DNA of 12,702 nt from a virus (taxonomy: Duplodnaviria; Heunggongvirae; Uroviricota; Caudoviricetes), in IMG/VR virus record IMGVR_UViG_2563366971_000008; one strand, written 5' to 3'. Of the stretch, positions 1 through 12,702 are shown piece after piece. Both the position numbers and the translations under genes were made by a program. Numbering within the stretch: position 1 is the first letter of the stretch; each line of letters begins with the position of its first letter. Under the pieces are notes generated by a model. That model had not been told where the DNA came from and ran no database searches. It saw only the letters and a list, made by a program, of their open reading frames with translations.

Positions 1-1698
1 CTATACTTTAAAGAACTTATTTGTCGAAGATAACTCAAGGATCGAGTTACTCATCATCATTTTCATGTCCGCATCTTCTGAAAACTTATCACTTAATATT
101 GACACAATATATTGACCATTTATATTATTTGCTTCAAAAAATATATCTCTAATTTGATTCACATCGACATCTTCAATGCTATCATGAATAACAAAAGTAG
201 GTCTCTTTAATTTAATCTTATCCACAAACTTAATATAAGCCAAATCAAATGCAGTTATTTCACCTTTCTTCTTGCCGCCATTACTGTTTGGTGTAACGCA
301 TGATATATCAAAATTACACTTACCTTTATCAACATCAAAGGAAAGATCAAAAATGTATCTTTCCCCATATATTTCCTTTGTAAGATCACCAAAAAACTCA
401 TTGAAAATCTCGATGTTTTTTTCCAGACCTTGAACTGCTAACTCTATTTCTAAAAGTAATTTCTCTCGACTATCTTCAAGAGATTTTATGAGGGCATTTG
501 TATCATTAATACGCGAAAGATTAGACTCTATGCTAGCAAGATTTTCACGTAATTCAGTAAGCTTATTAAATAATTGATTTATAGACTTTAATGTTTCAGG
601 TTCTTTGATTGTTCTAAATAGGGATGATTCTTGTTCATGAAGATCATTGATTTTTTTATTTACAGTTTCTATTTCTTCTTTTTTCTTTAACAATTCAGAT
701 TCTAAAAAACTGATTTTATTCTTAATAATATCATTATGGAACAATACCATTTCTTCGTAAGTCCTTTTAAGTTCCCCATTAAAATAAATCCCCGCAGAAT
801 TATATATTTCCATTAAATCATTTTCTACAAGTTGTATGATATTATTCTTCAAGGACAAGATCGATTCTTCGATATTTCTTACTCGCATATTTAAGGAGGC
901 ATAGCTCAAAGAATAATCACTGATATTCTTCTGTATTTCTGAAAGCTTTTTTAAGCTTTCATCATGACTATCTTTAAAATCGAAGTTCTTAATATTTCTT
1001 TCCGCCTCTGCAATTTCTTTCTTCAGAGGCTTAATCATTTTTGCTAAAACAGTCTCTCTATTTGGATTCCTGTATGCGGCAAGATATGTCTTTTGTTTTT
1101 TTATCACTTTGTTAAAATCACCTTTTTTCTTTATCAGAGGTAGCCCATTGAACCCAAATAAAAACAAGTATAATAGATCATAGACATCAGGAGTCGTATT
1201 CCCATGTAAGAAATTAAGCGTTTTCTGCATTTTATCATTCGTGTTTCTAATAAATTTATGCGAAACATTCCTCAGTGATGGCTTATCTGTAGTTAACCCA
1301 AACACTGCTTGAGCTATAAATTCAGAATATTGTTTCTTATCTACTTCAACATCATTTAAAAAATATTTTGAATTTTTATCATCAATAGATATTATACGTG
1401 AAATAACTGCCTTTTTATTTTCTACCGTATTGAAATCCAATGAAAATTTCAAAACATTATTATTAATTAACGATACAATTTCAGGTATATCTTTTCCAAA
1501 CTCTGCATCATGATAAATATCATGACCTGATGACATAAATAAATAATCTAAAACACGCGATAATGTGGATTTACCTACACTATTGCCGCTATCTTTGCCT
1601 GATGTTCTTTTATTTACAATTAGATTCAGACCGTCTTTAAACGTCACCTCTCTTACAAGAGAGTCATTTTTTAAAATAATAAGTTTATTGAGCCTCAT
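1..1698 (-). CDS. SMC/ABC-type P-loop ATPase with central coiled coil (565 aa); candidate defence ATPase
   Basis: Complete ORF with ATG at 1698-1696 and stop at 3-1. N-terminus reads like an SMC/RecF head, with Walker A SGNSVGKST around residues 37-45. Residues about 200-440 are K/E/L-rich and heptad-like. C-terminus has a signature-like SNGG and a Walker B-like TFVIHD around residues 501-506. A GGTGGA Shine-Dalgarno sits upstream. Confidence 0.8.
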   Translation of the reverse strand: MRLNKLIILKNDSLVREVTFKDGLNLIVNKRTSGKDSGNSVGKSTLSRVLDYLFMSSGHDIYHDAEFGKDIPEIVSLINNNVLKFSLDFNTVENKKAVISRIISIDDKNSKYFLNDVEVDKKQYSEFIAQAVFGLTTDKPSLRNVSHKFIRNTNDKMQKTLNFLHGNTTPDVYDLLYLFLFGFNGLPLIKKKGDFNKVIKKQKTYLAAYRNPNRETVLAKMIKPLKKEIAEAERNIKNFDFKDSHDESLKKLSEIQKNISDYSLSYASLNMRVRNIEESILSLKNNIIQLVENDLMEIYNSAGIYFNGELKRTYEEMVLFHNDIIKNKISFLESELLKKKEEIETVNKKINDLHEQESSLFRTIKEPETLKSINQLFNKLTELRENLASIESNLSRINDTNALIKSLEDSREKLLLEIELAVQGLEKNIEIFNEFFGDLTKEIYGERYIFDLSFDVDKGKCNFDISCVTPNSNGGKKKGEITAFDLAYIKFVDKIKLKRPTFVIHDSIEDVDVNQIRDIFFEANNINGQYIVSILSDKFSEDADMKMMMSNSILELSSTNKFFKV

Positions 1699-1904
1699 AT
1701 ACTATTCCACCATTTCCATCTAACTCAATTGCGCCGATTATGAAAAGCCAATCTAATTAGTAAAGAAAAAGATCAAACGATAACTCGAAGATAGAATTTA
1801 CTAAATCATACAATCGAGATATTTCAATGACCATTGAATCATTACTTTGAAAGATCCTAAGCACTACACTTCCAATATATACAGGATTTGCTTTTGGATC
1901 CGTA
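1699..1904 (-). promoter_or_regulatory. 206-bp AT-rich spacer inside the cassette with a candidate internal sigma70-like promoter for the ATPase gene
   Basis: On the minus strand, TTTACT, a 17-nt spacer, then ATAATC lies about 30 nt upstream of the ATPase ATG. The gap is unusually long for an operon. This is motif inspection only. Confidence 0.25.
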
Positions 1905-2453
1905 TCAATTGTAATCATTTGGATTCTCCAGCACTATACATTCGATAATAGCATAGCTAACAATCATACGAATGCCATAATCAATATCTTCCTGTAAAAA
2001 CTCTGAATCTAAATTAGAACACGAACTAACTGTTTCTTGAGCAGCTCTAATAACATCATCTATAATATTATCCGAGTTTTTCCTTATGAGTTCAATGTTA
2101 AATGGTTTCTCATAAAGACCATATAATCCCAATGCAGTATTATAATAACCTCTAAACTGTCTTTTCAATTTGACACTACCATTTAAAATTATAGCATCAA
2201 GTGTTTTTATGGATTCATCAACTAGCAGAGCATCTTCTTTATAAAGTTCAGCTACCCATCTGTTTCTTTTAAGATCATTGAATTCTATTTTAACATCAAT
2301 ATTTGATGCTATTCTGTTTAAGTTTTGCTCGCTACCAACTGAATTAGAAATAATTTCAATTAACTTACCAATAACACTGGCTCTTAACATTCTTGGCTGG
2401 TTGTTTATATGCACAGGACCAGTATTATTATTGAAATTAACACCAGAACCCAT
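1905..2453 (-). CDS. hypothetical protein (182 aa), middle gene of the cargo cassette
   Basis: ORF with ATG at 2453-2451, preceded by a GGGGG Shine-Dalgarno formed by the last codons of the upstream gene (stop-TT-ATG coupling). No catalytic motif recognised; few His/Cys. Same strand and AT-rich composition as its neighbours. Confidence 0.7.
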   Translation of the reverse strand: MGSGVNFNNNTGPVHINNQPRMLRASVIGKLIEIISNSVGSEQNLNRIASNIDVKIEFNDLKRNRWVAELYKEDALLVDESIKTLDAIILNGSVKLKRQFRGYYNTALGLYGLYEKPFNIELIRKNSDNIIDDVIRAAQETVSSCSNLDSEFLQEDIDYGIRMIVSYAIIECIVLENPNDYN

Positions 2454-2455
2454 AA

Positions 2456-2728
2456 TTACCCCCGATTATCAATATTCACAGGACCATTATTATCTTGAAA
2501 ATATTGAGAACGCGCTCCTTGATTAATGAAGTTTCTATTAGTTGTAATTTTTACAATCTGGGAATTAAGATCATTTATTGTAATGTTAAGTTGTTTTATC
2601 TCATTATCTTTCTTGGTTACTTGCATAGTCTGATATATTGCTATACATCCAGAGATCACCCCAACAATATATCCAAAGGCACTTACATATTCGTTAGCAA
2701 GTAGTGATGCAATCATTTGGAGCTCCAT
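2456..2728 (-). CDS. small single-pass membrane protein (90 aa; possibly 86 aa from the second ATG at 2716)
   Basis: The ORF carries a hydrophobic stretch VSAFGYIVGVISGCIAIY (about residues 15-32) followed by a charged helical tail. The internal ATG at 2716 has a better Shine-Dalgarno (GGAG, 6-nt spacer) than the first ATG. First gene of the cassette. Confidence 0.6.
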   Translation of the reverse strand: MELQMIASLLANEYVSAFGYIVGVISGCIAIYQTMQVTKKDNEIKQLNITINDLNSQIVKITTNRNFINQGARSQYFQDNNGPVNIDNRG

Positions 2729-2985
2729 TTCAAGCTGAAAGATTTAAAGTCACAACAATCTCATCCTATTAGGGTAGCTAGGATAGCAACTCATGAAGAG
2801 TAAATAAATAGGTATTAATCATTATCGTTTACATGATCTAATTCAACATAGATCCACTCATGGCCTCTATACTTTCTCATAAACACAGTGTTTAGCTATG
2901 TGGGCTTAAGAGGTCTAAATTGATGTACTTACTTTATCAATTGATATAACCCCAAATTATAATCGTTTCATATCATTGACGCGCA

Positions 2986-3004
2986 GTGCTTTCCCCGCCT
3001 CGCC
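2986..3004 (-). other. P2/P4-type cos site (19-nt cohesive-end core)
   Basis: Minus strand reads GGCGAGGCGGGGAAAGCAC, which I recall as the P2/P4 cohesive-end sequence. It lies just downstream of psu, as in P4. Confidence 0.6.
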
Positions 3005-3027
3005 CGCCCGCTTTGTGGGGCGGTTTT
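3004..3027 (+). terminator. GC hairpin plus T-run next to cos
   Basis: CCGCCC, loop GCTTTGTG, GGGCGG, then TTTT. It overlaps the cos-flanking sequence, so the function is uncertain. Confidence 0.3.
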
Positions 3028-3105
3028 AATGCAGTTGTACTGACACGCTCAGACTGCGCCGGGAATGGCGCGGTCTGCAGAAAATGAGGCAGGGAAACGC
3101 ATGCA

Positions 3106-3138
3106 AAGCCATGCACCTTATCGATGCATGGCTTTTTT
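3106..3138 (+). terminator. rho-independent terminator-like hairpin between cos and psu
   Basis: Perfect 10-bp stem AAGCCATGCA / TGCATGGCTT with a 9-nt loop, followed by TTTTTT on the plus strand. An A-run precedes it on the minus strand, so it may act in both directions, including for the psu transcript. Confidence 0.5.
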
Positions 3139-3168
3139 CAGTAAAAACGGGCGGATTTTCGGGGAATT

Positions 3169-3741
3169 TTACACAGACTGACGTGATGCCAGTTGCGCAC
3201 TTTTACGCGAAAAAATCATGTTCTGCGCAGGGGTGAATTTTTCACGGCTGTCATCCACCGAAGCCGCGTCAGGCCTGAATCCGATGGTCGTTAAAATGTC
3301 GCTATCCTGTGCGGAATAATTAATTTTTTCCCCCTTCGCAAGCCAGGACAGAAGGGCTTCACGCAGGGCATCTGTGGCACGCTGTATGGCACAGTTTCGG
3401 GCAATGGCCGTCAGCTCACTGTAGCCCATCAGCTCCGGTGCCAGTGCGGCCGCCAGTGCTGTGCCGTGCTGCTGCATAAAATCATTCAGCCGGTCGCGGA
3501 TGCTGATGTGCTGAACGGCTTCATGCGAACGAATATAACGACCGGCAGCCTGATTCACCTGCCATTTTCTGACTTCGATAATATTGCGTAATTCGTCCAG
3601 GCGACTGACGTTTCTGCCTTCCCCTGACAGAAGCCGCAGATATTCCTGTTCGGCCGCAGCCAGCTCATTTTTGCGTTGCAGCCATGCTGCTTTGTTATTC
3701 TGACAGGTGTCAAAGGCCTGCTGTAAGGCTGTGCTTTCCAT
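3169..3741 (-). CDS. psu: Psu-like polarity suppression / capsid decoration protein (190 aa)
   Basis: 190 aa, the same length as P4 Psu, and last gene of the sid-delta-psu block next to cos. N-terminus MESTALQQAF matches my recollection of P4 Psu. Confidence 0.85.
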   Translation of the reverse strand: MESTALQQAFDTCQNNKAAWLQRKNELAAAEQEYLRLLSGEGRNVSRLDELRNIIEVRKWQVNQAAGRYIRSHEAVQHISIRDRLNDFMQQHGTALAAALAPELMGYSELTAIARNCAIQRATDALREALLSWLAKGEKINYSAQDSDILTTIGFRPDAASVDDSREKFTPAQNMIFSRKSAQLASRQSV

Positions 3742-3814
3742 CGTTATCTCTTTCTCATCATGCTGAAGAATAAAAATACGGTGTGCGGCGACGGCCGGTG
3801 TTAACCGGCAGCCC

Positions 3815-4315
3815 TCATTCCAGACGCAGCGAATATGATTGTGTTTTTAAGCGTACTGGCGGCAGTTCCTGTTTTTCATGCAGGCTTTCTGCCAGTTCGT
3901 CCGGCGTGACCGGGCGGACAATAAAACGGTTGATGGTCTGAAGCGTTTTAAACACCAGACCACATCCCGGATCCGTGCACACATAAAAACGCTCGGTGAC
4001 TTCCTGAGACAGACGCCGCGATGTTCTTGACAGTGCAAGGCCTTTACATCTCCGACAACAATATCCGGTAACAAGCATTCTTTTCGGGCGTTTCATACTG
4101 CCGGAGGCTGACGTCAGTGAATCGCGGTATCTCTGTTTGCCTGAAATGTATTCCATTCCTGAATCTTTACTGTCAGAGAAAAAGCTTTCACTCGCTTCAA
4201 ATGTCGCAGAGCAATAAATATTCCGGCACTGTGCAATCATTATCTTGGTGCCATCGTCCATGAAATGTGCGCGGCGGGTGTGAGCAACATGTCCACACGA
4301 CGGGCAGTAAATCAT
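3815..4315 (-). CDS. delta: Delta-like late transcription activator (166 aa, tandem Ogr-type zinc finger)
   Basis: Two Ogr-like Cys motifs (CPSCGH...CRNIYC and CRRCKG...CTDPGC). 166 aa equals P4 Delta. Its ATG overlaps the sid stop (ATGA), as in P4. Confidence 0.85.
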   Translation of the reverse strand: MIYCPSCGHVAHTRRAHFMDDGTKIMIAQCRNIYCSATFEASESFFSDSKDSGMEYISGKQRYRDSLTSASGSMKRPKRMLVTGYCCRRCKGLALSRTSRRLSQEVTERFYVCTDPGCGLVFKTLQTINRFIVRPVTPDELAESLHEKQELPPVRLKTQSYSLRLE

Positions 4316-5064
4316 GACAGCACTCCTCTGGCCTTAAGCACTGCTCCCTGCTGGTCTATTTTGTCCTGCCACACCTTGCGCTGTGCCGGTGTGCCTGCCA
4401 CCTCATAATCCATGTGAGGAAGTGTTGCCGCTGACAGTCCGGTCAGCCGGAGAACCGGCTCGCCGGTGAGGCTGATTTGCATCTGTTTAATTTTCTGTTC
4501 CAGCGATGATTTCACCTGCTGCATGACAGCCTTTTCCGGTGCGACGTAGCCCTGATGGCCGGTGGTGTTGGCGAGCGGATTTTCCTGTACCAGAATGCTC
4601 AGATGCATTGCCCGGACAAGCGCCTCACAGGTTTCATTCAGGGCGTGTTCCAGCTCATGCTCTGCATACAGACTCAGAAGGTGATGATGTGCCTTCCGGT
4701 AGGCGGTGGCCGTGCTGTCACACGCCCCTTTCAGGCGTTCACGTTCGAAATTCAGCACCACGGCCAGATTGTCATATTCCTGTACCAGCTCCCGGCGTGC
4801 CACGCGCTCAATGTGGCGCTGTTTCAGCTCGTCGCTCAGGACACCACCGGCTGCACGAAAGGCCGTGCGCCAGTCGTCAGCGTCGTTTCCGTCGGCCTGC
4901 GCCAGCGCATTTTTTTCCTGCTCTGCCCGTTCAATGGCCGTGACGGTCTCATCCATCAGGCGGGCGTTCTCAAGATGGGCGGCTCTGGCCTTTTCCAGTT
5001 GTGCCAGCGCGGGTTGCAGATATTCAGGGATGGTGTTGTCAGACATTTTCCGGCTCCTCGTCAC
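4312..5064 (-). CDS. sid: Sid-like external scaffold / capsid size determination protein (250 aa)
   Basis: Position upstream of delta with translational coupling. Size is close to P4 Sid (about 244 aa). Alanine- and glutamate-rich helical protein. Confidence 0.8.
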   Translation of the reverse strand: MTRSRKMSDNTIPEYLQPALAQLEKARAAHLENARLMDETVTAIERAEQEKNALAQADGNDADDWRTAFRAAGGVLSDELKQRHIERVARRELVQEYDNLAVVLNFERERLKGACDSTATAYRKAHHHLLSLYAEHELEHALNETCEALVRAMHLSILVQENPLANTTGHQGYVAPEKAVMQQVKSSLEQKIKQMQISLTGEPVLRLTGLSAATLPHMDYEVAGTPAQRKVWQDKIDQQGAVLKARGVLS

Positions 5065-5080
5065 TTCAGGTTAAGAAAAT

Positions 5081-5136
5081 TGTGACGTACACCGGACAAC
5101 AACACGACGCATTGCAGATGTGCCAGCCCTGACACA
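5081..5136. promoter_or_regulatory. two TGT-N12-ACA dyads upstream of sid (candidate Ogr/Delta activator sites, Psid-like late promoter)
   Basis: TGT-N12-ACA at 5081-5098 and 5119-5136. This is the P2/P4 late-promoter activator dyad architecture, located just upstream of the sid start. Confidence 0.35.
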
Positions 5137-5214
5137 GGAGACTCATCCTCACACCGGCAAGCCAGGAAAAGGTCGCAGGAAAAACCGGCTTACTGTTTGT
5201 TTTTTATATTTTAC

Positions 5215-5318
5215 TGTTCACCTCTGTTCACCTTAATAAAAAAGATAATTAATACAGTAAGTTAAAGGGTGAACAATCGCAGTAATGACTGTTCACCGTC
5301 TGTTCACCACTGTTCACC
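5215..5318. repeat. iteron cluster: five direct and one inverted copy of TGTTCACC (P4 ori-like alpha-binding sites)
   Basis: TGTTCACC at 5215, 5225, 5290, 5301 and 5311, mostly at 10-11 bp spacing, with an inverted copy at 5268-5275. TGTTCACC is the P4 type I iteron bound by alpha. Confidence 0.6.
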
Positions 5319-5422
5319 CGTTCATGGACTTTTTGTGCTGTTTATTACTTTTTATTTTTATTAATTCGCCGGGAATGAATAAGAAAAAACGATTTGTATT
5401 TCACTATAAAAATTACGAATTG

Positions 5423-5452
5423 CTTTAAGTGGCTTTAAATGACTTTAAGTGG
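5423..5452 (+). promoter_or_regulatory. three tandem 10-bp repeats (CTTTAAGTGG / CTTTAAATGA / CTTTAAGTGG) upstream of the alpA-like gene
   Basis: Exact head-to-tail 10-bp periodicity about 145 bp upstream of the early-gene start. Candidate operator or early-promoter element. Confidence 0.4.
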
Positions 5453-5597
5453 AGATGAACAAAAAACACACAAGCATTATAAGACTGCCGGAACAAATCC
5501 CCCCTGTTGCGTCTGCTGAAAATATTCACAAAATAAAGCGCTACCCGAAGCCGGACGGACTTATCCGGTGCTGTATGGACATTAACGAGGTAGCCCG

Positions 5598-5864
5598 ATG
5601 CAAGCTGTTTTTTCTTCCCCGTCTCCCGCCCCTGTGACGCCACTGATGCCGCTGCCGGACATCACGCAGGAGCGTTTTTTACGTCTGCCGGAAGTGATGC
5701 ACCTGTGCGGCCTGTCACGCTCGACCATCTATGAACTCATCCGTAAGGGGGAATTTCCGCCGCAGGTGAGTCTTGGCGGTAAAAATGTGGCCTGGCTGCA
5801 CTCTGAAGTCACTGCATGGATGGCCGGGCGCATTGCCGGACGCAAACGGGGGTACGACGCATGA
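5598..5864 (+). CDS. alpA: AlpA-family (P4 orf88/Vis-like) helix-turn-helix transcriptional regulator (88 aa)
   Basis: 88 aa with the characteristic LRLPEV...[17 protein letters not shown] helix-turn-helix. GAGG Shine-Dalgarno 7 nt upstream of the ATG. Confidence 0.85.
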
Positions 5865-6262
5865 TGATGCCCGCTCTGCAAAAACTCCCTTTTTCTGGCT
5901 TGCCTTTTTCCGGCATTTGCGGATATAGTTTTTCCGCTGCCGCAAAATCGGCAGCCGGGCGTGGAAACCCGAGCAATTCACAGGCGACATATGACGCGCC
6001 ATGCGTCTTTTTTTGTGTCGCAATCAACGCCACAGAGCGCCAGATTATGGTGTGGTGTGTGGTCAGTCGTGCAGATGGCATTCCGTGCATCCTGCCCGCG
6101 TCCGCTCATTATGCCGCAGAGTCAATGGTAGCTCAGGCGGGGCAGCCTCCGGGCTGGCCGGTATCCTGTGAAGCCGGTATTTCCACCCCCGTCTGGGCTA
6201 TCGCCATCGAGCGTGGAAACTCCGGCGATAGCGTTATTTGCTATTCACAGGAGGCTGCCATC

Positions 6263-6460
6263 ATGGCTACAACCCTTACCCCCTCACACCCTGAATTTGT
6301 CTTTGTGTTTGCGGCTGTCCGTCGCACAGACCGTCATCCCCGTATCTGTATGCTTCGCACCGTCGCCGGTGATGAACGCAGTGCCCGCCGTTCCCTTGTC
6401 CGTGACTATGTGCTCTCCCTTGCTGCCCGTCTGCCGGTGGTGGAGGTGTCCCGTGCGTAA
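6263..6460 (+). CDS. hypothetical small protein (65 aa); start uncertain
   Basis: ATG at 6263 with GGAGG 8 nt upstream. The frame stays open upstream to 5816, but that part looks non-coding (low complexity, Cys/Trp-rich). Confidence 0.3.
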
Positions 6461-6740
6461 TAAAAAAGCCCCTCAGACCGTCTCAGCGCGTCATGACGCC
6501 CGTGAACACCTCAGCATTGAGGCTTACCATAAGCTCAACCGCGCCAGCGCCGTATCCCAGTTTGTTGGGGGTGATTTGATTCACCGTGAACTCTCCGGCC
6601 TGCATCAGCTCTACATTCCGCATATTTTCAGTTACCTGAATGAAGATATTGATTTTGTGCTGAATGAGCTGAAAGCCAAAGGCCTGTGCCGCGATTTTCT
6701 CGCCCAGCAGAAAGACCGGGGAGACAGGACGCATGTTTGA
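6453..6740 (+). CDS. small protein (95 aa), positional equivalent of P4 epsilon (derepression protein)
   Basis: GTG start at 6453 with GGAGG 6 nt upstream. It overlaps the previous stop and the next start. Size and position between the orf88-like and orf151-like genes match P4 eps; the sequence itself was not verified. Confidence 0.5.
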
Positions 6741-7188
6741 TTTTCCCCAGCCCGGTGAGATTTACCGTTCTGCCGGTTTTCCCGATGTGGCCGTGGTCGG
6801 CATTCTGGAAGACGGTATTCCGTGGGAAATGCCGTACCGCTGCCCGGACATTGTCTGGAACCCGTACCGCCGTAAATTCAGTATCCTTGTGCGTATCCTC
6901 GCTGACGGGCGCACCACAGACATCCCGCTGGGGCGTTTTCTGCGGGAATTTACCTGTGACCGTCCTGACCTGTTCAGACGCAGCCCCGTAAACCGGCATG
7001 CGGTACTGAAAGAAATGGCCGGAGACCCGGAATTACAGAAATGGCGGGAGAAATATCTGGATATTTACCCGCAGGACCCTGTTCCGGTCAGCCGGGCGGC
7101 ACCGGTGGCGCGGGAATGGCGGGAAATTCCCCGCACGGAGCCTGACCCGGAAATCACACCGGATAACAGTTACCGCAATTATCTGTAA
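6733..7188 (+). CDS. P4 orf151-like protein (151 aa)
   Basis: ATG overlaps the upstream stop (ATGTTTGA). 151 aa, same as P4 orf151, in the conserved position before orf106 and alpha. Confidence 0.7.
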   Translation: MFDFPQPGEIYRSAGFPDVAVVGILEDGIPWEMPYRCPDIVWNPYRRKFSILVRILADGRTTDIPLGRFLREFTCDRPDLFRRSPVNRHAVLKEMAGDPELQKWREKYLDIYPQDPVPVSRAAPVAREWREIPRTEPDPEITPDNSYRNYL

Positions 7189-7323
7189 TTAAAAAACGAC
7201 ACCCGAAAAATTAAATGTGCGTATTCGCGCAGGGATACGCACGTCTTCAGGAGACGCAGATATGCCTTATCAGTTAATGCAACCGGCACGGAATGCAGTC
7301 ATCTGTCACAGGGAGGAAAGCAA

Positions 7324-7644
7324 ATGAAAACACCCTTACCGCCCGTCTTACGCGCTGCCCTTTACCGTCGCGCTGTCGCCTGTGCCTGGCTGACCGTGTG
7401 CGAACGTCAGCACCGCTACCCGCATCTCACCCTTGAATCACTGGAGGCGGCCATCGCCGCTGAGCTGGAAGGCTTTTATCTGCGCCAGCACGGTGAGGAA
7501 AAAGGGCGTCAGATAGCCTGTGCCCTGCTGGAAGATTTAATGGAATCCGGCCCCCTGAAGGCCGCGCCGTCGCTGTCCTTTCTCGGGCTGGTTGTGATGG
7601 ATGAACTCTGTGCCCGTCACATAAAAGCGCCGGTACTGCACTGA
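7324..7644 (+). CDS. P4 orf106-like protein (106 aa)
   Basis: Strong Shine-Dalgarno GGGAGGA upstream of the ATG. 106 aa, immediately upstream of alpha as in P4. Confidence 0.7.
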
Positions 7645-7658
7645 AGGAGAACAACACC

Positions 7659-8624
7659 ATGAAAATGAACGTAACCGCCACCGTCAGCCATGCGCTCGGC
7701 CACTGGCCGCGTATCCTCCCGGCGCTGGGGATTCAGGTGCTGAAAAACCGTCATCAGCCCTGTCCGGTCTGTGGCGGGAGTGACCGCTTCCGTTTTGATG
7801 ACAGGGAGGGGCGCGGCACCTGGTACTGCAATCAGTGTGGTGCCGGTGACGGCCTGAAACTGGTTGAAAAGGTGTTTGGTGTCTCCCCGTCCGACGCGGC
7901 CACAAAGGTGGCTGCCGTGACCGGCAGCCTGCCCCCGGCTGACCCGGCAGTGACGGCCGCCGCCGGTGCTGAAACAGACGCTGCCCGGAAGAACGCCGCC
8001 GCACTGGCACAAACCCTGATGGCGAAAACCCGTCCCGGAACCGGTAACGCCTACCTGACCCGCAAGGGCTTTCCCGGCCGGGAATGCCGGATGCTGACCG
8101 GCACACACAGAGCCGGTGGCGTGAGCTGGCGTGCCGGTGACCTTGTGGTGCCACTGTATGACGACAGCGGCGAACTGGTTAACCTTCAGTTAATCAGTGC
8201 TGACGGCCGTAAGCGCACCCTGAAAGGCGGACAGGTCAGGGGCACCTGTCACACCCTTGAAGGACAGAATCAGGCCGGAAAACGTCTGTGGATAGCGGAG
8301 GGATACGCGACCGCACTTACCGTGCATCACCTGACCGGTGAAACGGTGATGGTGGCGCTTTCTTCCGTGAATCTCCTTTCTCTGGCCAGCCTTGCCCGGC
8401 AGAAGCATCCGGCCTGTCAGATTGTCCTTGCTGCTGACCGTGACCTCAGCGGTGACGGCCAGAAAAAAGCCGCCGCAGCCGCAGATGCGTGTGAAGGTGT
8501 GTTGCCCTGCCGCCGGTCTTCGGTGACTGGAATGATGCCTTCACGCAGTACGGCGGGGAAGCCACCCGTAAGGCCATTTATGATGCCATCCGGCCACCGG
8601 CTGAAAGCCCGTTCGACACCATGA
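7659..8624 (+). CDS. alpha: alpha primase-helicase, N-terminal fragment (zinc-binding primase/TOPRIM part), interrupted by a frameshift
   Basis: AAGGAGA Shine-Dalgarno. CPVCGG...CNQCG zinc motif, then EGYATA and AADRD TOPRIM-like motifs. After about residue 280 the translation becomes Arg/Pro/Ser-rich nonsense, while the protein-like sequence continues in another frame. Confidence 0.8.
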   Translation: MKMNVTATVSHALGHWPRILPALGIQVLKNRHQPCPVCGGSDRFRFDDREGRGTWYCNQCGAGDGLKLVEKVFGVSPSDAATKVAAVTGSLPPADPAVTAAAGAETDAARKNAAALAQTLMAKTRPGTGNAYLTRKGFPGRECRMLTGTHRAGGVSWRAGDLVVPLYDDSGELVNLQLISADGRKRTLKGGQVRGTCHTLEGQNQAGKRLWIAEGYATALTVHHLTGETVMVALSSVNLLSLASLARQKHPACQIVLAADRDLSGDGQKKAAAAADACEGVLPCRRSSVTGMMPSRSTAGKPPVRPFMMPSGHRLKARSTP

Positions 8625-9991
8625 GCGAAGCGGAGTTTTCCGCCATGAGTACCAGCGAAAAGGCCATGCGTATCTATGAGCATTACGGCGAGGCGCTCGC
8701 GGTTGATGCCAACGGCCAGCTTCTGTCCCGTTATGAAAATGGTGTCTGGAAGGTGCTGCCACCACAGGACTTTGCCCGGGATGTGGCCGGGCTGTTTCAG
8801 CGGCTGCGCGCGCCGTTCTCCTCCGGGAAGGTGGCCTCCGTGGTGGACACCCTGAAGCTGATTATTCCGCAGCAGGAAGCCCCCTCCCGCCGCCTGATTG
8901 GCTTTCGTAACGGCGTGCTCGACACGCAGAACGGCACGTTCCACCCGCACAGTCCGTCACACTGGATGCGCACCCTGTGCGATGTGGATTTCACCCCACC
9001 GGTGGAAGGGGAAACGCTGGAAACCCACGCCCCCGCGTTCTGGCGCTGGCTTGACCGTGCCGCCGGTGGCCGTGCGGAAAAACGCGACGTGATTCTGGCC
9101 GCACTGTTTATGGTGCTGGCAAACCGCTATGACTGGCAGCTCTTTCTGGAGGTGACCGGTCCCGGCGGCAGCGGCAAAAGTATCATGGCCGAAATAGCCA
9201 CCCTGCTGGCCGGGGAGGATAACGCCACGTCGGCCACCATTGAGACGCTGGAATCCCCGCGTGAACGTGCCGCGTTAACTGGCTTCTCACTGATACGCCT
9301 GCCGGACCAGGAAAAATGGAGCGGCGACGGTGCCGGACTCAAGGCCATCACCGGCGGCGATGCGGTGTCCGTGGACCCGAAATACCGGGATGCGTACTCC
9401 ACGCATATCCCGGCGGTGATTCTGGCCGTGAACAATAACCCGATGCGCTTCACCGACCGCAGCGGCGGCGTGTCACGCCGGCGGGTGATTATTCACTTCC
9501 CGGAACAGATAGCCCCGCAGGAGCGCGACCCGCAGCTTAAGGACAAAATCACCCGCGAGCTGGCGGTCATCGTGCGTCACCTGATGCAGAAGTTCAGCGA
9601 CCCGATGCTCGCCCGGTCACTGCTTCAGTCCCAGCAGAACTCAGACGAGGCACTGAACATCAAACGGGATGCCGACCCGACGTTTGATTTTATCGGCTAT
9701 CTGGAAACCCTGCCGCAGACCAGCGGCATGTATATGGGGAACGCCAGTATCATCCCGCGTAACTACCGTAAATACCTCTATCACGCCTATCTGGCCTACA
9801 TGGAGGCAAACGGCTACCGGAATGTACTCAGTCTGAAAATGTTCGGGCTGGGGCTGCCGGTGATGCTGAAGGAATACGGGCTGAATTACGAGAAGCGCCA
9901 TACCAAACAGGGGATACAGACCAACCTGACGCTGAAAGAGGAAAGCTACGGCGACTGGCTGCCAAAATGTGACGACCCTGCAACAACCTGA
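8495..9991 (+). CDS. alpha: alpha primase-helicase, C-terminal fragment (helicase with Walker A GPGGSGKS, plus C-terminal DNA-binding part)
   Basis: This frame is open from 8495 (first ATG at 8621) and reads VALPPVFGDWNDAFTQYGGEATRKAIYDAIRPP before the listed ORF. The two fragments sum to 777 aa, the length of P4 alpha. Confidence 0.8.
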   Translation, partial: RCVALPPVFGDWNDAFTQYGGEATRKAIYDAIRPPAESPFDTMSEAEFSAMSTSEKAMRIYEHYGEALAVDANGQLLSRYENGVWKVLPPQDFARDVAGLFQRLRAPFSSGKVASVVDTLKLIIPQQEAPSRRLIGFRNGVLDTQNGTFHPHSPSHWMRTLCDVDFTPPVEGETLETHAPAFWRWLDRAAGGRAEKRDVILAALFMVLANRYDWQLFLEVTGPGGSGKSIMAEIATLLAGEDNATSATIETLESPRERAALTGFSLIRLPDQEKWSGDGAGLKAITGGDAVSVDPKYRDAYSTHIPAVILAVNNNPMRFTDRSGGVSRRRVIIHFPEQIAPQERDPQLKDKITRELAVIVRHLMQKFSDPMLARSLLQSQQNSDEALNIKRDADPTFDFIGYLETLPQTSGMYMGNASIIPRNYRKYLYHAYLAYMEANGYRNVLSLKMFGLGLPVMLKEYGLNYEKRHTKQGIQTNLTLKEESYGDWLPKCDDPATT

Positions 9992-10007
9992 CCATCATGA
10001 CTCATCT

Positions 10008-10032
10008 GACCGGCATCTGCCGGTCTTTTTTT
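10008..10032 (+). terminator. rho-independent terminator after alpha
   Basis: GACCGGCA / TGCCGGTC stem followed by TTTTTTT, 17 nt after the alpha stop. Confidence 0.5.
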
Positions 10033-10050
10033 ATCCCTGAATTCCCCGAA

Positions 10051-10142
10051 GGTGAACAATCCACTGTTCACCCTTCACCCATTATTCACCACCTATCACT
10101 CTGAAATAAAAGGAGAAAATCAAAGAGTGAACAGTGTGAACA
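10051..10142. repeat. crr-like iteron cluster (direct and inverted TGTTCACC-related octamers) downstream of alpha
   Basis: GGTGAACA at 10051, TGTTCACC at 10065, and 7/8 matches at 10083, 10127 and 10135. Placement downstream of alpha matches the P4 cis replication region. Confidence 0.55.
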
Positions 10143-10438
10143 GTTCTTTCGAAAAAAAATTTTTTTCCTGTACGATATAGCATCAATCCAAGTAAAAATG
10201 CGCTTTCATTTCACATTAACTTACAGCCATTGGTATACGATTAGGTATACGCACAAAAACTGAATTAAATAAAATCGTTAAAAATCAAAGCGATACAATA
10301 TTTATTCAAACTCCGCCAGCACGGTGTAAGGACTACACCAACAAAAACAGGAAGTTATAAGTCTCAGAAGGACACCGACCAGACGGTGAGGAGACAAAAA
10401 AGGATACGCAACGGAGTCGCGACTCCCTATGACATTAA

Positions 10439-10462
10439 AGCCCGCTGATGCGGGCTTTTTTA
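10439..10462 (+). terminator. rho-independent terminator in the satellite/host junction region
   Basis: AGCCCGC, loop TGAT, GCGGGCT, then TTTTTTATT. It is preceded by a perfect 14-bp palindrome GGAGTCGCGACTCC at 10413-10426. Confidence 0.5.
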
Positions 10463-10892
10463 TTGGTCCTGACCCGCCCTGAATAGAATTCATCCAATTA
10501 CAGTCCAGACATATACAGTATCCCTCAGCTCAGTATCAGCTTCTCGACAAATGGTCACTGTTATTTACCCGTTGCCAGAAAGAGAATAATTTGCCCCCAT
10601 AGCCAGCCTTCCCGGAATCTGTATATTCATTAATATTGTTATCGATTCCATCAAGTAACATAGGTTGGATGCGATTGATCTTACTCACATTAGTCGACAC
10701 GGAACTCAGTAAGTTGAACTCTGGAAAAGCAGTTTAAATAGCATTTAAACAAATGCCACCAGTTCGAAAAAGAGTATAAGCACACTTAATATATTGTTTT
10801 AATTATTCATTTCCTTTCAACCCAATTCTTATCCCTCACATTATTTGTTATTAATTTGTTGTTTTTGATCACAATAAGAAAACAATATGTAA

Positions 10893-11969
<1,077 letters not shown>

Positions 11970-11988
11970 GCGCAAAGGAATTGAGCGG

Positions 11989-12702
11989 ATGTATGATTTT
12001 GTGATTATTGGCGGCGGCATCATCGGCATGTCGACCGCCATGCAACTGATTGATGTTTATCCGGATGCCCGCATTGCGTTGCTGGAAAAAGAGTCCGGCC
12101 CGGCCTGTCACCAGACGGGCCACAACAGCGGCGTGATCCATGCCGGAGTCTATTACACGCCCGGCAGCCTGAAGGCGCAGTTTTGCCTGGCGGGGAACCG
12201 TGCCACTAAAGTCTTTTGCGATCAAAACGGCATTCGCTACGACAACTGCGGCAAGATGCTGGTCGCCACGTCTGAACTCGAAATGGAACGGATGAATGCG
12301 TTATGGAAACGCACGGCGGCAAACGGAATCGAGCGCGAGTGGTTAAACGCCGAGGAGCTGCGCGAGCGTGAACCGAATATCACCGGGCTTGGCGGCATTT
12401 TTGTGCCGTCCAGCGGCATTGTCAGCTACCGCGAAGTGACGGCGGCGATGGCAAAAATCTTCCAGGCCAGAGGTGGTGAGATTATTTATAACGCCGAAGT
12501 CAGCGCCCTCAGTGAGCATAAAAACGGCGTGGTGATACGTACCCGTCAGGGCGGTGAATATGAAGCATCGACGCTGATTAGCTGTTCCGGGCTGATGGCT
12601 GACCGGCAAGGTGAATACGTACTCTGCGGGCATGGGGCTGATGCCGGGTCATGTTTATCGCGCGCTTTATCCTTGCCCGCTGCACGGCATAAGCGAGGAT
12701 GA
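11989..12702 (+). CDS. lhgO: L-2-hydroxyglutarate oxidase LhgO (YgaF), 5' partial; runs off the window
   Basis: ATG at 11989 with AAGGAA 8 nt upstream. N-terminal FAD-binding motif MYDFVIIGGGIIG. The listed ORF start at 11923 lies inside csiD and is not the real start. Confidence 0.85.
   Translation: MYDFVIIGGGIIGMSTAMQLIDVYPDARIALLEKESGPACHQTGHNSGVIHAGVYYTPGSLKAQFCLAGNRATKVFCDQNGIRYDNCGKMLVATSELEMERMNALWKRTAANGIEREWLNAEELREREPNITGLGGIFVPSSGIVSYREVTAAMAKIFQARGGEIIYNAEVSALSEHKNGVVIRTRQGGEYEASTLISCSGLMADRQGEYVLCGHGADAGSCLSRALSLPAARHKRG

Follow-up and report, generated by a model that had tools for sequence, protein, structure and literature searches.

The AT-rich DNA at the left end of this sequence is very probably the cargo of a P4-like satellite, meeting the conserved backbone at the cohesive-end site (cos) and carrying a mobile, horizontally acquired Lamassu-like gene cassette that probably has a promoter of its own. 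The locus is the psu-int defense hotspot described by Rousset et al. 2022 (PMC9122126), and in that sense is already known. What is new here is the following: a boundary placed at base level, between positions 2979 and 2980 of the window (the whole 12,702-nucleotide stretch analyzed); a boundary on the int side; steps in sequence identity at cos; a Lamassu-like assignment of the cargo; and a conserved promoter-like block in its leader.

The satellite and its locus

Window positions 1–12607 are 100% identical to the chromosome of Escherichia coli N24 and its sister isolates. According to the RefSeq annotation of that locus, a P4-like satellite prophage lies at ssrA in the E. coli chromosome, reversed relative to the P4 reference. 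RefSeq gives this gene order:

smpB, ssrA, integrase, DUF2326 protein, two hypothetical proteins
psu, delta (ogr/Delta), sid, P4 regulatory genes
frameshifted alpha primase-helicase, followed by the host gene glaH

Position 1 is the first base past the int stop codon, and int itself is just outside the window. Pfam matches, identity to P4, and RefSeq annotation together identify a P4-like backbone: psu, delta (Pfam Ogr_Delta was found in the window), sid, the regulatory genes, alpha primase, and int. Positions 3005–10170 have 97.9% DNA identity to phage P4. Cargo (1–2979) thus lies between psu and int, adjoining cos, in the order int, cargo, cos, psu. The landmarks at this end are:

2986–3004, minus strand: 19-nt cohesive end GGCGAGGCGGGGAAAGCAC, an exact match (reverse complement) corresponding to P4 coordinates 1–19; the P4 record ends at window position 3005
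2980–3037: P2/P4 cos core, ~58 bp, 65.5% GC, the only stretch common to P2-like phages (homology search and anchored alignment)
3169–3741, minus strand: psu, the first backbone gene right of cos (Pfam Psu, E = 1.3e-88; 98.6% DNA identity to P4)

Three side observations concern the rest of the window. The alpha primase-helicase gene (plus strand, 7659–9991) is split into overlapping reading frames, 7659–8624 and 8621–9991, and is labeled "frameshifted" by RefSeq; the satellite may have lost the ability to replicate. A second AT-rich stretch, with 28–39% GC and small open reading frames only, occupies positions 10000–10990, between the end of alpha and glaH; minor hotspots near the primase gene are mentioned in PMC13586616. 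Finally, the last 95 bases (12608–12702) depart from N24 and match it again after a gap of ~2.58 kb, passing from lhgO to gabT, which indicates a deletion or join in the source of the window relative to N24.

The junction at cos

Base composition changes abruptly at the junction. A two-segment likelihood fit places the GC change point at 2977–2979. GC content is 0.303 in 1–2979 and 0.319 in 2729–2979, then 0.655 in 2980–3037 and 0.561 in 2980–10000. The abrupt compositional boundary described in an earlier note on this DNA is therefore real, a step from 30% to 56% GC.

Homology stops at the same place. A megablast search with window positions 2400–3800 against 5,426 complete E. coli genomes matched 2,255 of them; outside the 28 that carry the same cargo, matches start at window positions 2966–2986, mostly at 2976 or 2980. 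An alignment anchored on the cohesive end then brought together 15 loci: P4, P2, six E. coli satellites whose cargo differs, and satellites from five other genera (Enterobacter, Tatumella, Citrobacter, Kluyvera, and Photorhabdus). (A Psu-based search of GTDB yielded six loci, which served for the cos alignment; the statistics come from the E. coli collection.) In all 15 anchored loci, similarity vanishes leftwards from 2979. Comparison among P4-like elements, which the earlier note had proposed, thus maps the conserved/variable junction to 2979/2980. Left of the cohesive end the sole sequence in common is CGCGCA (2980–2985), with minor exceptions among the 15 loci.

The boundary is far beyond chance, because the GC step coincides with a homology boundary in thousands of genomes. 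The earlier note had the AT-rich DNA ending within about 40 bp of the P2/P4 cos core. The boundary itself holds, with an exact cos match and a clear GC step; the distance is shorter, for AT-rich DNA stops only 6 bp short of the cohesive end.

Matches to P2-like phages and prophages are confined to window positions 2980–3037. This conserved block, with its exact cohesive end, fits the "55-bp core sequence" described for P2-family cos regions (Ziermann and Calendar 1990, as cited in PMC5694545). The site is a candidate for cleavage and packaging by P2 terminase. The helper terminase would have to recognize the ~58-bp core, and this would keep the core invariant. Variable DNA reaching to within 6 bp of the cohesive end would, moreover, bound the terminase-required sequence on that side. 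(A scan also flagged a terminator-like hairpin at 3004–3023. Its folding is no better than that of shuffled sequences (z = −0.6 on the plus strand and −1.9 on the minus strand), and other cos types do not retain the stem; it is regarded as part of the cos core rather than as a terminator.)

At the other end of the cargo, homology with satellites that have other cargo ends at about −31, counted from window position 1. Over its last ~30 bp, int varies with the cargo: in three IMG/VR satellites of a different cos type (L019, L020, and L021), window positions −30 to 0 are 93.5% identical, and elsewhere in int the identity is 84% in L020 and L021. The stop codons of int and of the ABC ATPase gene lie immediately next to each other. 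The int-side stop, the pattern of identity, and the 2979/2980 boundary jointly define the exchangeable module in these alignments: it begins within int, ~30 bp before the 3′ end of the gene, and extends to position 2979.

A Lamassu-like cassette

The cargo has the features of an ABC-3C/Lamassu-like candidate anti-phage cassette of four genes, lacking a recognizable effector and including an extra small gene. It would be transcribed away from cos, through the following genes:

2456–2716, minus strand: first cassette gene, 86-aa protein, hydrophobic helix at the N-terminus and coiled-coil-like in the middle (RefSeq CDS)
1905–2453, minus strand: 182-aa protein, LmuA-CTD-like, with a weak Pfam CTD10 match
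1685–1918, minus strand: ABC-3C middle component 6 (MC6, LmuC-like), 77 aa in relatives and 53 aa here
1–1698, minus strand: DUF2326 ABC/SMC-like ATPase, LmuB-like, 565 aa, last cassette gene (RefSeq WP_001553312.1)

The 565-aa ATPase matches Pfam DUF2326 (E = 1.2e-17; 64 bits, cut-off 28.7 bits) as well as the PADLOC families PDC-M68B (E = 1.4e-45) and LmuB (E = 2.7e-15). Directly upstream of this LmuB-like gene is the small gene of MC6 type. The intact form is named "ABC-three component system middle component 6" in RefSeq, and homologous loci have Pfam MC6 matches; the intact protein had no NCBIfam match. Here the gene is cut short by a nonsense codon at 1757–1759, S54* when the translation is compared with that from strain cq9. 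Of the 28 E. coli genomes with the cassette, the six most similar to the window have no RefSeq annotation for MC6, and the other 22 do. With MC6 cut short, this copy of the cassette may be inactive; given the frameshifted alpha gene as well, the element may be decaying.

The 182-aa protein is probably an LmuA-type C-terminal domain without a recognizable effector. Its match to Pfam CTD10 (ABC-3C; E = 0.004, 18 bits) falls below the curated cut-off of 28, PF20275 is precomputed on three homologues, and neither Pfam, PADLOC, nor NCBIfam gave an effector domain in it. The 86-aa protein is kept in all 11 cassette copies compared. Pfam returns weak coiled-coil-type matches only, and an NCBIfam scan of the small cassette proteins gave no useful names. 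Its C-terminus (QDNNGPVNIDNRG; 2456–2500, minus strand) resembles the N-terminus of the 182-aa protein (NNNTGPVHINNQ; 2400–2453, minus strand), a likeness that could be a common motif or the trace of an earlier fusion or split. This first gene most likely starts at 2716 rather than 2728, since 2716 is the RefSeq start, a Shine-Dalgarno GGAG lies ~6–7 nt upstream of it, and the upstream ATG (2728) is missing from two homologues, those of Pantoea and Proteus.

ABC-3C systems belong to the Lamassu superfamily, whose components are an LmuA effector with a C-terminal domain (CTD), an LmuC middle component, and LmuB (PMC10586767). The cassette shares with Lamassu, ABC-3C, and DdmABC systems the order CTD protein, small middle component, and SMC/ABC-like ATPase, with overlapping reading frames. 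It differs in three ways: there is no recognizable LmuA effector domain; an extra 86-aa membrane/coiled-coil gene comes first; and MC6 is truncated in this copy. The first of these makes it comparable to the short Lamassu of "clade O," in which the LmuA effector domain has been lost (bioRxiv 10.1101/2025.04.02.646746). Homology to the candidate defense families PDC-M68B and LmuB points to a possible role in defense. A "Lamassu missing a known effector" (NAR 2026), which may or may not be this cassette, gave no protection in its authors' phage panel; the same authors state that a similar system has been shown active elsewhere.

Satellites of Serratia, Citrobacter, Pantoea, and Kosakonia have the same four-gene cassette adjoining cos. 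Outside P4-like satellites, it is present in a lambdoid prophage of Proteus terrae (between the tail and antiterminator-Q genes), an island of Proteus mirabilis, an int-primase island of Photorhabdus, and a Xenorhabdus contig.

The leader and its predicted promoter

Between the first cassette gene and the boundary lies a leader with these features:

2717–2979, minus strand: cassette leader, 263 nt, 32.7% GC, cargo rather than backbone
2780–2808, minus strand: predicted promoter, with a −35-like TTTATT (2808–2803), a 17-nt spacer, and an extended −10 element TGcTATCCT (2788–2780)
2723–2726, minus strand: Shine-Dalgarno GGAG, invariant or nearly so in 11 copies

The leader is absent from elements with other cargo. 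The earlier note had recognized it, with bounds of 2729–2985 that the start at 2716 and the 2979/2980 boundary move to 2717–2979.

An alignment of 11 cassette copies from P4-like satellites, the lambdoid prophage, and genomic islands covered the 125 nt preceding the start codon. Nine of the 15 invariant columns fall within a 29-nt span (2808–2780), and five lie around the Shine-Dalgarno sequence and the start. The consensus of the 29-nt block is TTCAYT-17-TGnTAnnnT on the minus strand (2808–2780) and is present in 11 of 11 copies, spanning four kinds of mobile element; copies outside P4-like elements retain this same proximal upstream block. Because it is kept in elements without a P4 backbone, the block is most likely the cassette's own promoter, of the sigma-70 extended −10 type. 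Transcription would then start near 2773, leaving a 5′ untranslated region of ~57 nt. A cassette with its own leader and promoter could work in any mobile element in which it lands.

A standard sigma-70 scan of 2400–3300 called no minus-strand promoter in the leader. The proposed promoter was missed because its −35 element matches at three of six positions and it depends on the TG extension. An Rfam scan of 2400–3400 gave two sub-threshold matches to eukaryotic snoRNAs and no known RNA element. The earlier note held that the leader "must" contain the cassette promoter: a promoter-like block is indeed there, and the "must" was an inference.

Transcription from the backbone has to be weighed against a resident promoter, and here a further feature matters:

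3105–3138, between psu and cos: hairpin with a 13-bp stem, a T6 run on the plus strand, and a weaker T tract on the minus strand

Here and in all P4-like copies found, the cassette points the same way as sid-delta-psu, as do P4's own gop-beta genes. It could accordingly lack a promoter and be expressed by read-through from the late operon (from Psid through sid-delta-psu and across cos), in which case defense would be on only when a helper phage activates P4. The weakness of the minus-strand T tract in the hairpin after psu would suit such read-through. However, the cassette and its proximal block are found in elements without a psu operon (the Photorhabdus and Proteus mirabilis islands, the Xenorhabdus contig, and the Proteus terrae prophage), where the genes must be expressed independently. 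The stability of the hairpin (−21.5 kcal/mol, z = −3.7, minus strand folded) also argues against transcription passing from psu into the cargo; it is probably a two-way terminator that insulates psu and cargo from each other. Furthermore, hotspot cargo occurs in either orientation, and systems carried on plasmids provided defense from their native promoters (Rousset et al., PMC9122126). Read-through is thus an unlikely source of cassette expression, and a promoter within the leader is preferred.

The palindrome and the distal leader

The distal part of the leader (~2850–2979) has two palindromic features:

2935–2946: perfect 12-bp palindrome TATCAATTGATA, lineage-specific
2956–2963: palindromic ATTATAAT, containing a perfect TATAAT on both strands, with no acceptable −35 on the minus strand

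This distal segment, with both features, is found in the E. coli, IMG/VR, and Kosakonia copies only. The earlier note correctly located the palindrome and suggested that it could be an operator. In a fuller form of that suggestion, the palindrome and the adjacent −10 sequence TATAAT (2961–2956, minus strand) would constitute a regulated promoter/operator for the cassette. The TATAAT is 9 nt upstream of the palindrome on the minus strand, which would set the palindrome over the transcription start. Moreover, palindrome, TATAAT, and flanks (GTTATATCAATTGATAA) are unchanged in L020 and L031 despite ~83% leader identity, although an 18-nt invariant run among three related lineages is weak evidence.

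Several observations make this arrangement quite improbable. Perfect palindromes of at least 12 bp arise in 11% of dinucleotide-preserving shuffles of the leader and in 80% of shuffles of the AT-rich block (mean 1.5). The TATAAT has no usable −35, since that position falls on the GC-rich flank of cos. The palindrome is conserved in L020 and L031 only and missing from eight of the 11 cassette copies, which are without the distal leader; the cos-adjacent copies from Serratia, Citrobacter, and Pantoea have a shorter leader, with neither the palindrome nor ATTATAAT, and retain the proximal promoter block alone. The palindrome is ~130 bp upstream of that block. Finally, searches of the cassette proteins with Pfam, NCBIfam, and PADLOC matched no DNA-binding domain. 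These results therefore do not support the suggested operator, and the palindrome most probably arose by chance in lineage-specific AT-rich filler DNA.

It is more improbable still that the distal leader is another promoter, regulated so as to respond to the state of the cos site. The −35 position of the TATAAT would be on the conserved cos flank (2985–2979), and the palindrome just downstream of the predicted start. Such a promoter would exist only with cos sealed, in the prophage or the circle, and might be occluded by terminase or another cos-binding factor. Cassette expression would then be coupled to the packaging state of the satellite. The one observation in its favor is co-conservation of TATAAT and palindrome in three related lineages. 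The proximal block remains the preferred promoter.

Two other candidates in this region were rejected. On the plus strand, TTATCA-18-TATAAT (2934–2963) matches a promoter at 10 of 12 positions and points into cos; with five such sites against 3.5 ± 2.0 expected, it is treated as chance. A hairpin with a T6 run follows ~140 nt further on along the same strand, and the match could give a short transcript across cos. The second candidate was a binding site for H-NS, whose high-affinity motif is TCGATAAATT. Within the palindrome, TTGATAAAGT matches this motif at 8 of 10 positions, but the window contains 17 such matches, with 15.8 expected.

Exchange of the cargo

By comparison across genomes, the AT-rich block is variable cargo and not backbone. 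The 2,979-bp block is present in 28 of the 5,426 complete E. coli genomes, always at full length and at least 99.6% identical; its DNA had no match in the plasmid collection searched. Of the 2,255 E. coli genomes matching the neighboring cos-psu segment, 2,227 lack this cargo and have unrelated genes in its place. Six other cargo types occur at the same junction, including gop-beta-cII (in P4), a restriction endonuclease, PARIS (DUF4435 and an AAA ATPase), a DEAD-box helicase system, and a HAD hydrolase system.

Relatedness also changes abruptly at cos. The satellite in strain cq9 differs at four positions (0.1%) over the ~4,390 bp made up of the ssrA-int spacer, int, cargo genes, and leader. 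Right of cos, the divergence is 1.4–3.9%, with the first difference at 3016. The satellite in strain 2013C-4974 has the same step in identity at cos, and neither strain differs from the window in the leader. More distantly, the three IMG/VR satellites with a different cos type are 91–96% identical to the window in the cargo genes, 83% in the leader, 81–84% in the cos core, and 70–73% in psu and sid. In this comparison across genera, identity steps at cos from 92% to 72%.

These results uphold two proposals of the earlier note: that the AT-rich cassette is variable cargo placed directly against cos, as its rarity and the other cargo at this junction indicate, and that cargo is exchanged as a module, as the sharp change of identity at cos indicates further. 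The same note had named as contrary evidence the occurrence of these AT-rich genes as conserved backbone in homologous satellites; instead, the cargo is rare and identity steps at cos. The idea that the boundary is ordinary gene-to-gene variation in composition within a conserved backbone, for which further AT-rich backbone patches (5200–5500 and 10100–10900) might be cited, is refuted by the replacement of the cargo with unrelated genes in nearly all genomes that have the cos-psu segment.

Exchange most likely proceeds by recombination, with one crossover at or within the conserved DNA on the cos/psu side and a second in int or flanking chromosomal DNA. Recombination with such crossovers would produce an abrupt change of relatedness at cos. 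The identity step is also compatible with a crossover anywhere in 2552–3015 and does not imply involvement of cos cleavage.

Relation to known systems

The closest known case is the psu-int hotspot itself, and nothing essential differs: the position between int and psu, directly by cos, is the same, and variable cargo adjoins a ~98% conserved backbone. Rousset et al. 2022 (PMC9122126) reported that the hotspot adjoins cos, and their figure marks conserved and variable sequence beside it. They also speculated that cohesive ends serve as a recombination substrate; the abrupt change of relatedness at cos fits the proposal that cos-proximal recombination drives exchange. Table S1A of that study lists WP_001553315, WP_001553312, and WP_000534626, which are this cargo, as "hypothetical + hypothetical + hypothetical."

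In P4 (NC_001609), gop-beta-cII occupies the same slot, with a leader of 227 nt between cos (1–19) and the gop start at 247. Like the cassette, gop-beta is transcribed away from cos and in the same direction as psu. The genes are unrelated, and DNA similarity is confined to the 19-mer and its flank.

The P2 hotspot, in contrast, lies on the opposite side of cos from that of P4, with cos in the same orientation. In phage P2 from strain T22 (around 2501–2567 of its locus, L015), the variable cargo consists of the cdtABC toxin genes on P4's psu side, and the portal and terminase genes are on P4's cargo side. Retrons Ec67 and Ec86 provide another parallel: PMC5694545 cites Dodd and Egan 1996 for a replacement next to cos in 186-related prophages. 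In that account, as with the cassette, foreign DNA replaces the stretch from cos to a nearby terminator in a P2-family element; unlike the cassette, it does so in a helper-type phage rather than a satellite, and the cargo is different.

Together, these results recover a published rule: P4-like satellites and P2-like phages hold exchangeable anti-phage cargo right against cos. The practical value of the observation is modest. Cargo previously catalogued as "hypothetical" can now be assigned, on homology, to an effector-less Lamassu-like cassette of four genes. Moreover, this cassette appears to move between satellites, prophages, and islands together with its own conserved promoter-like block.
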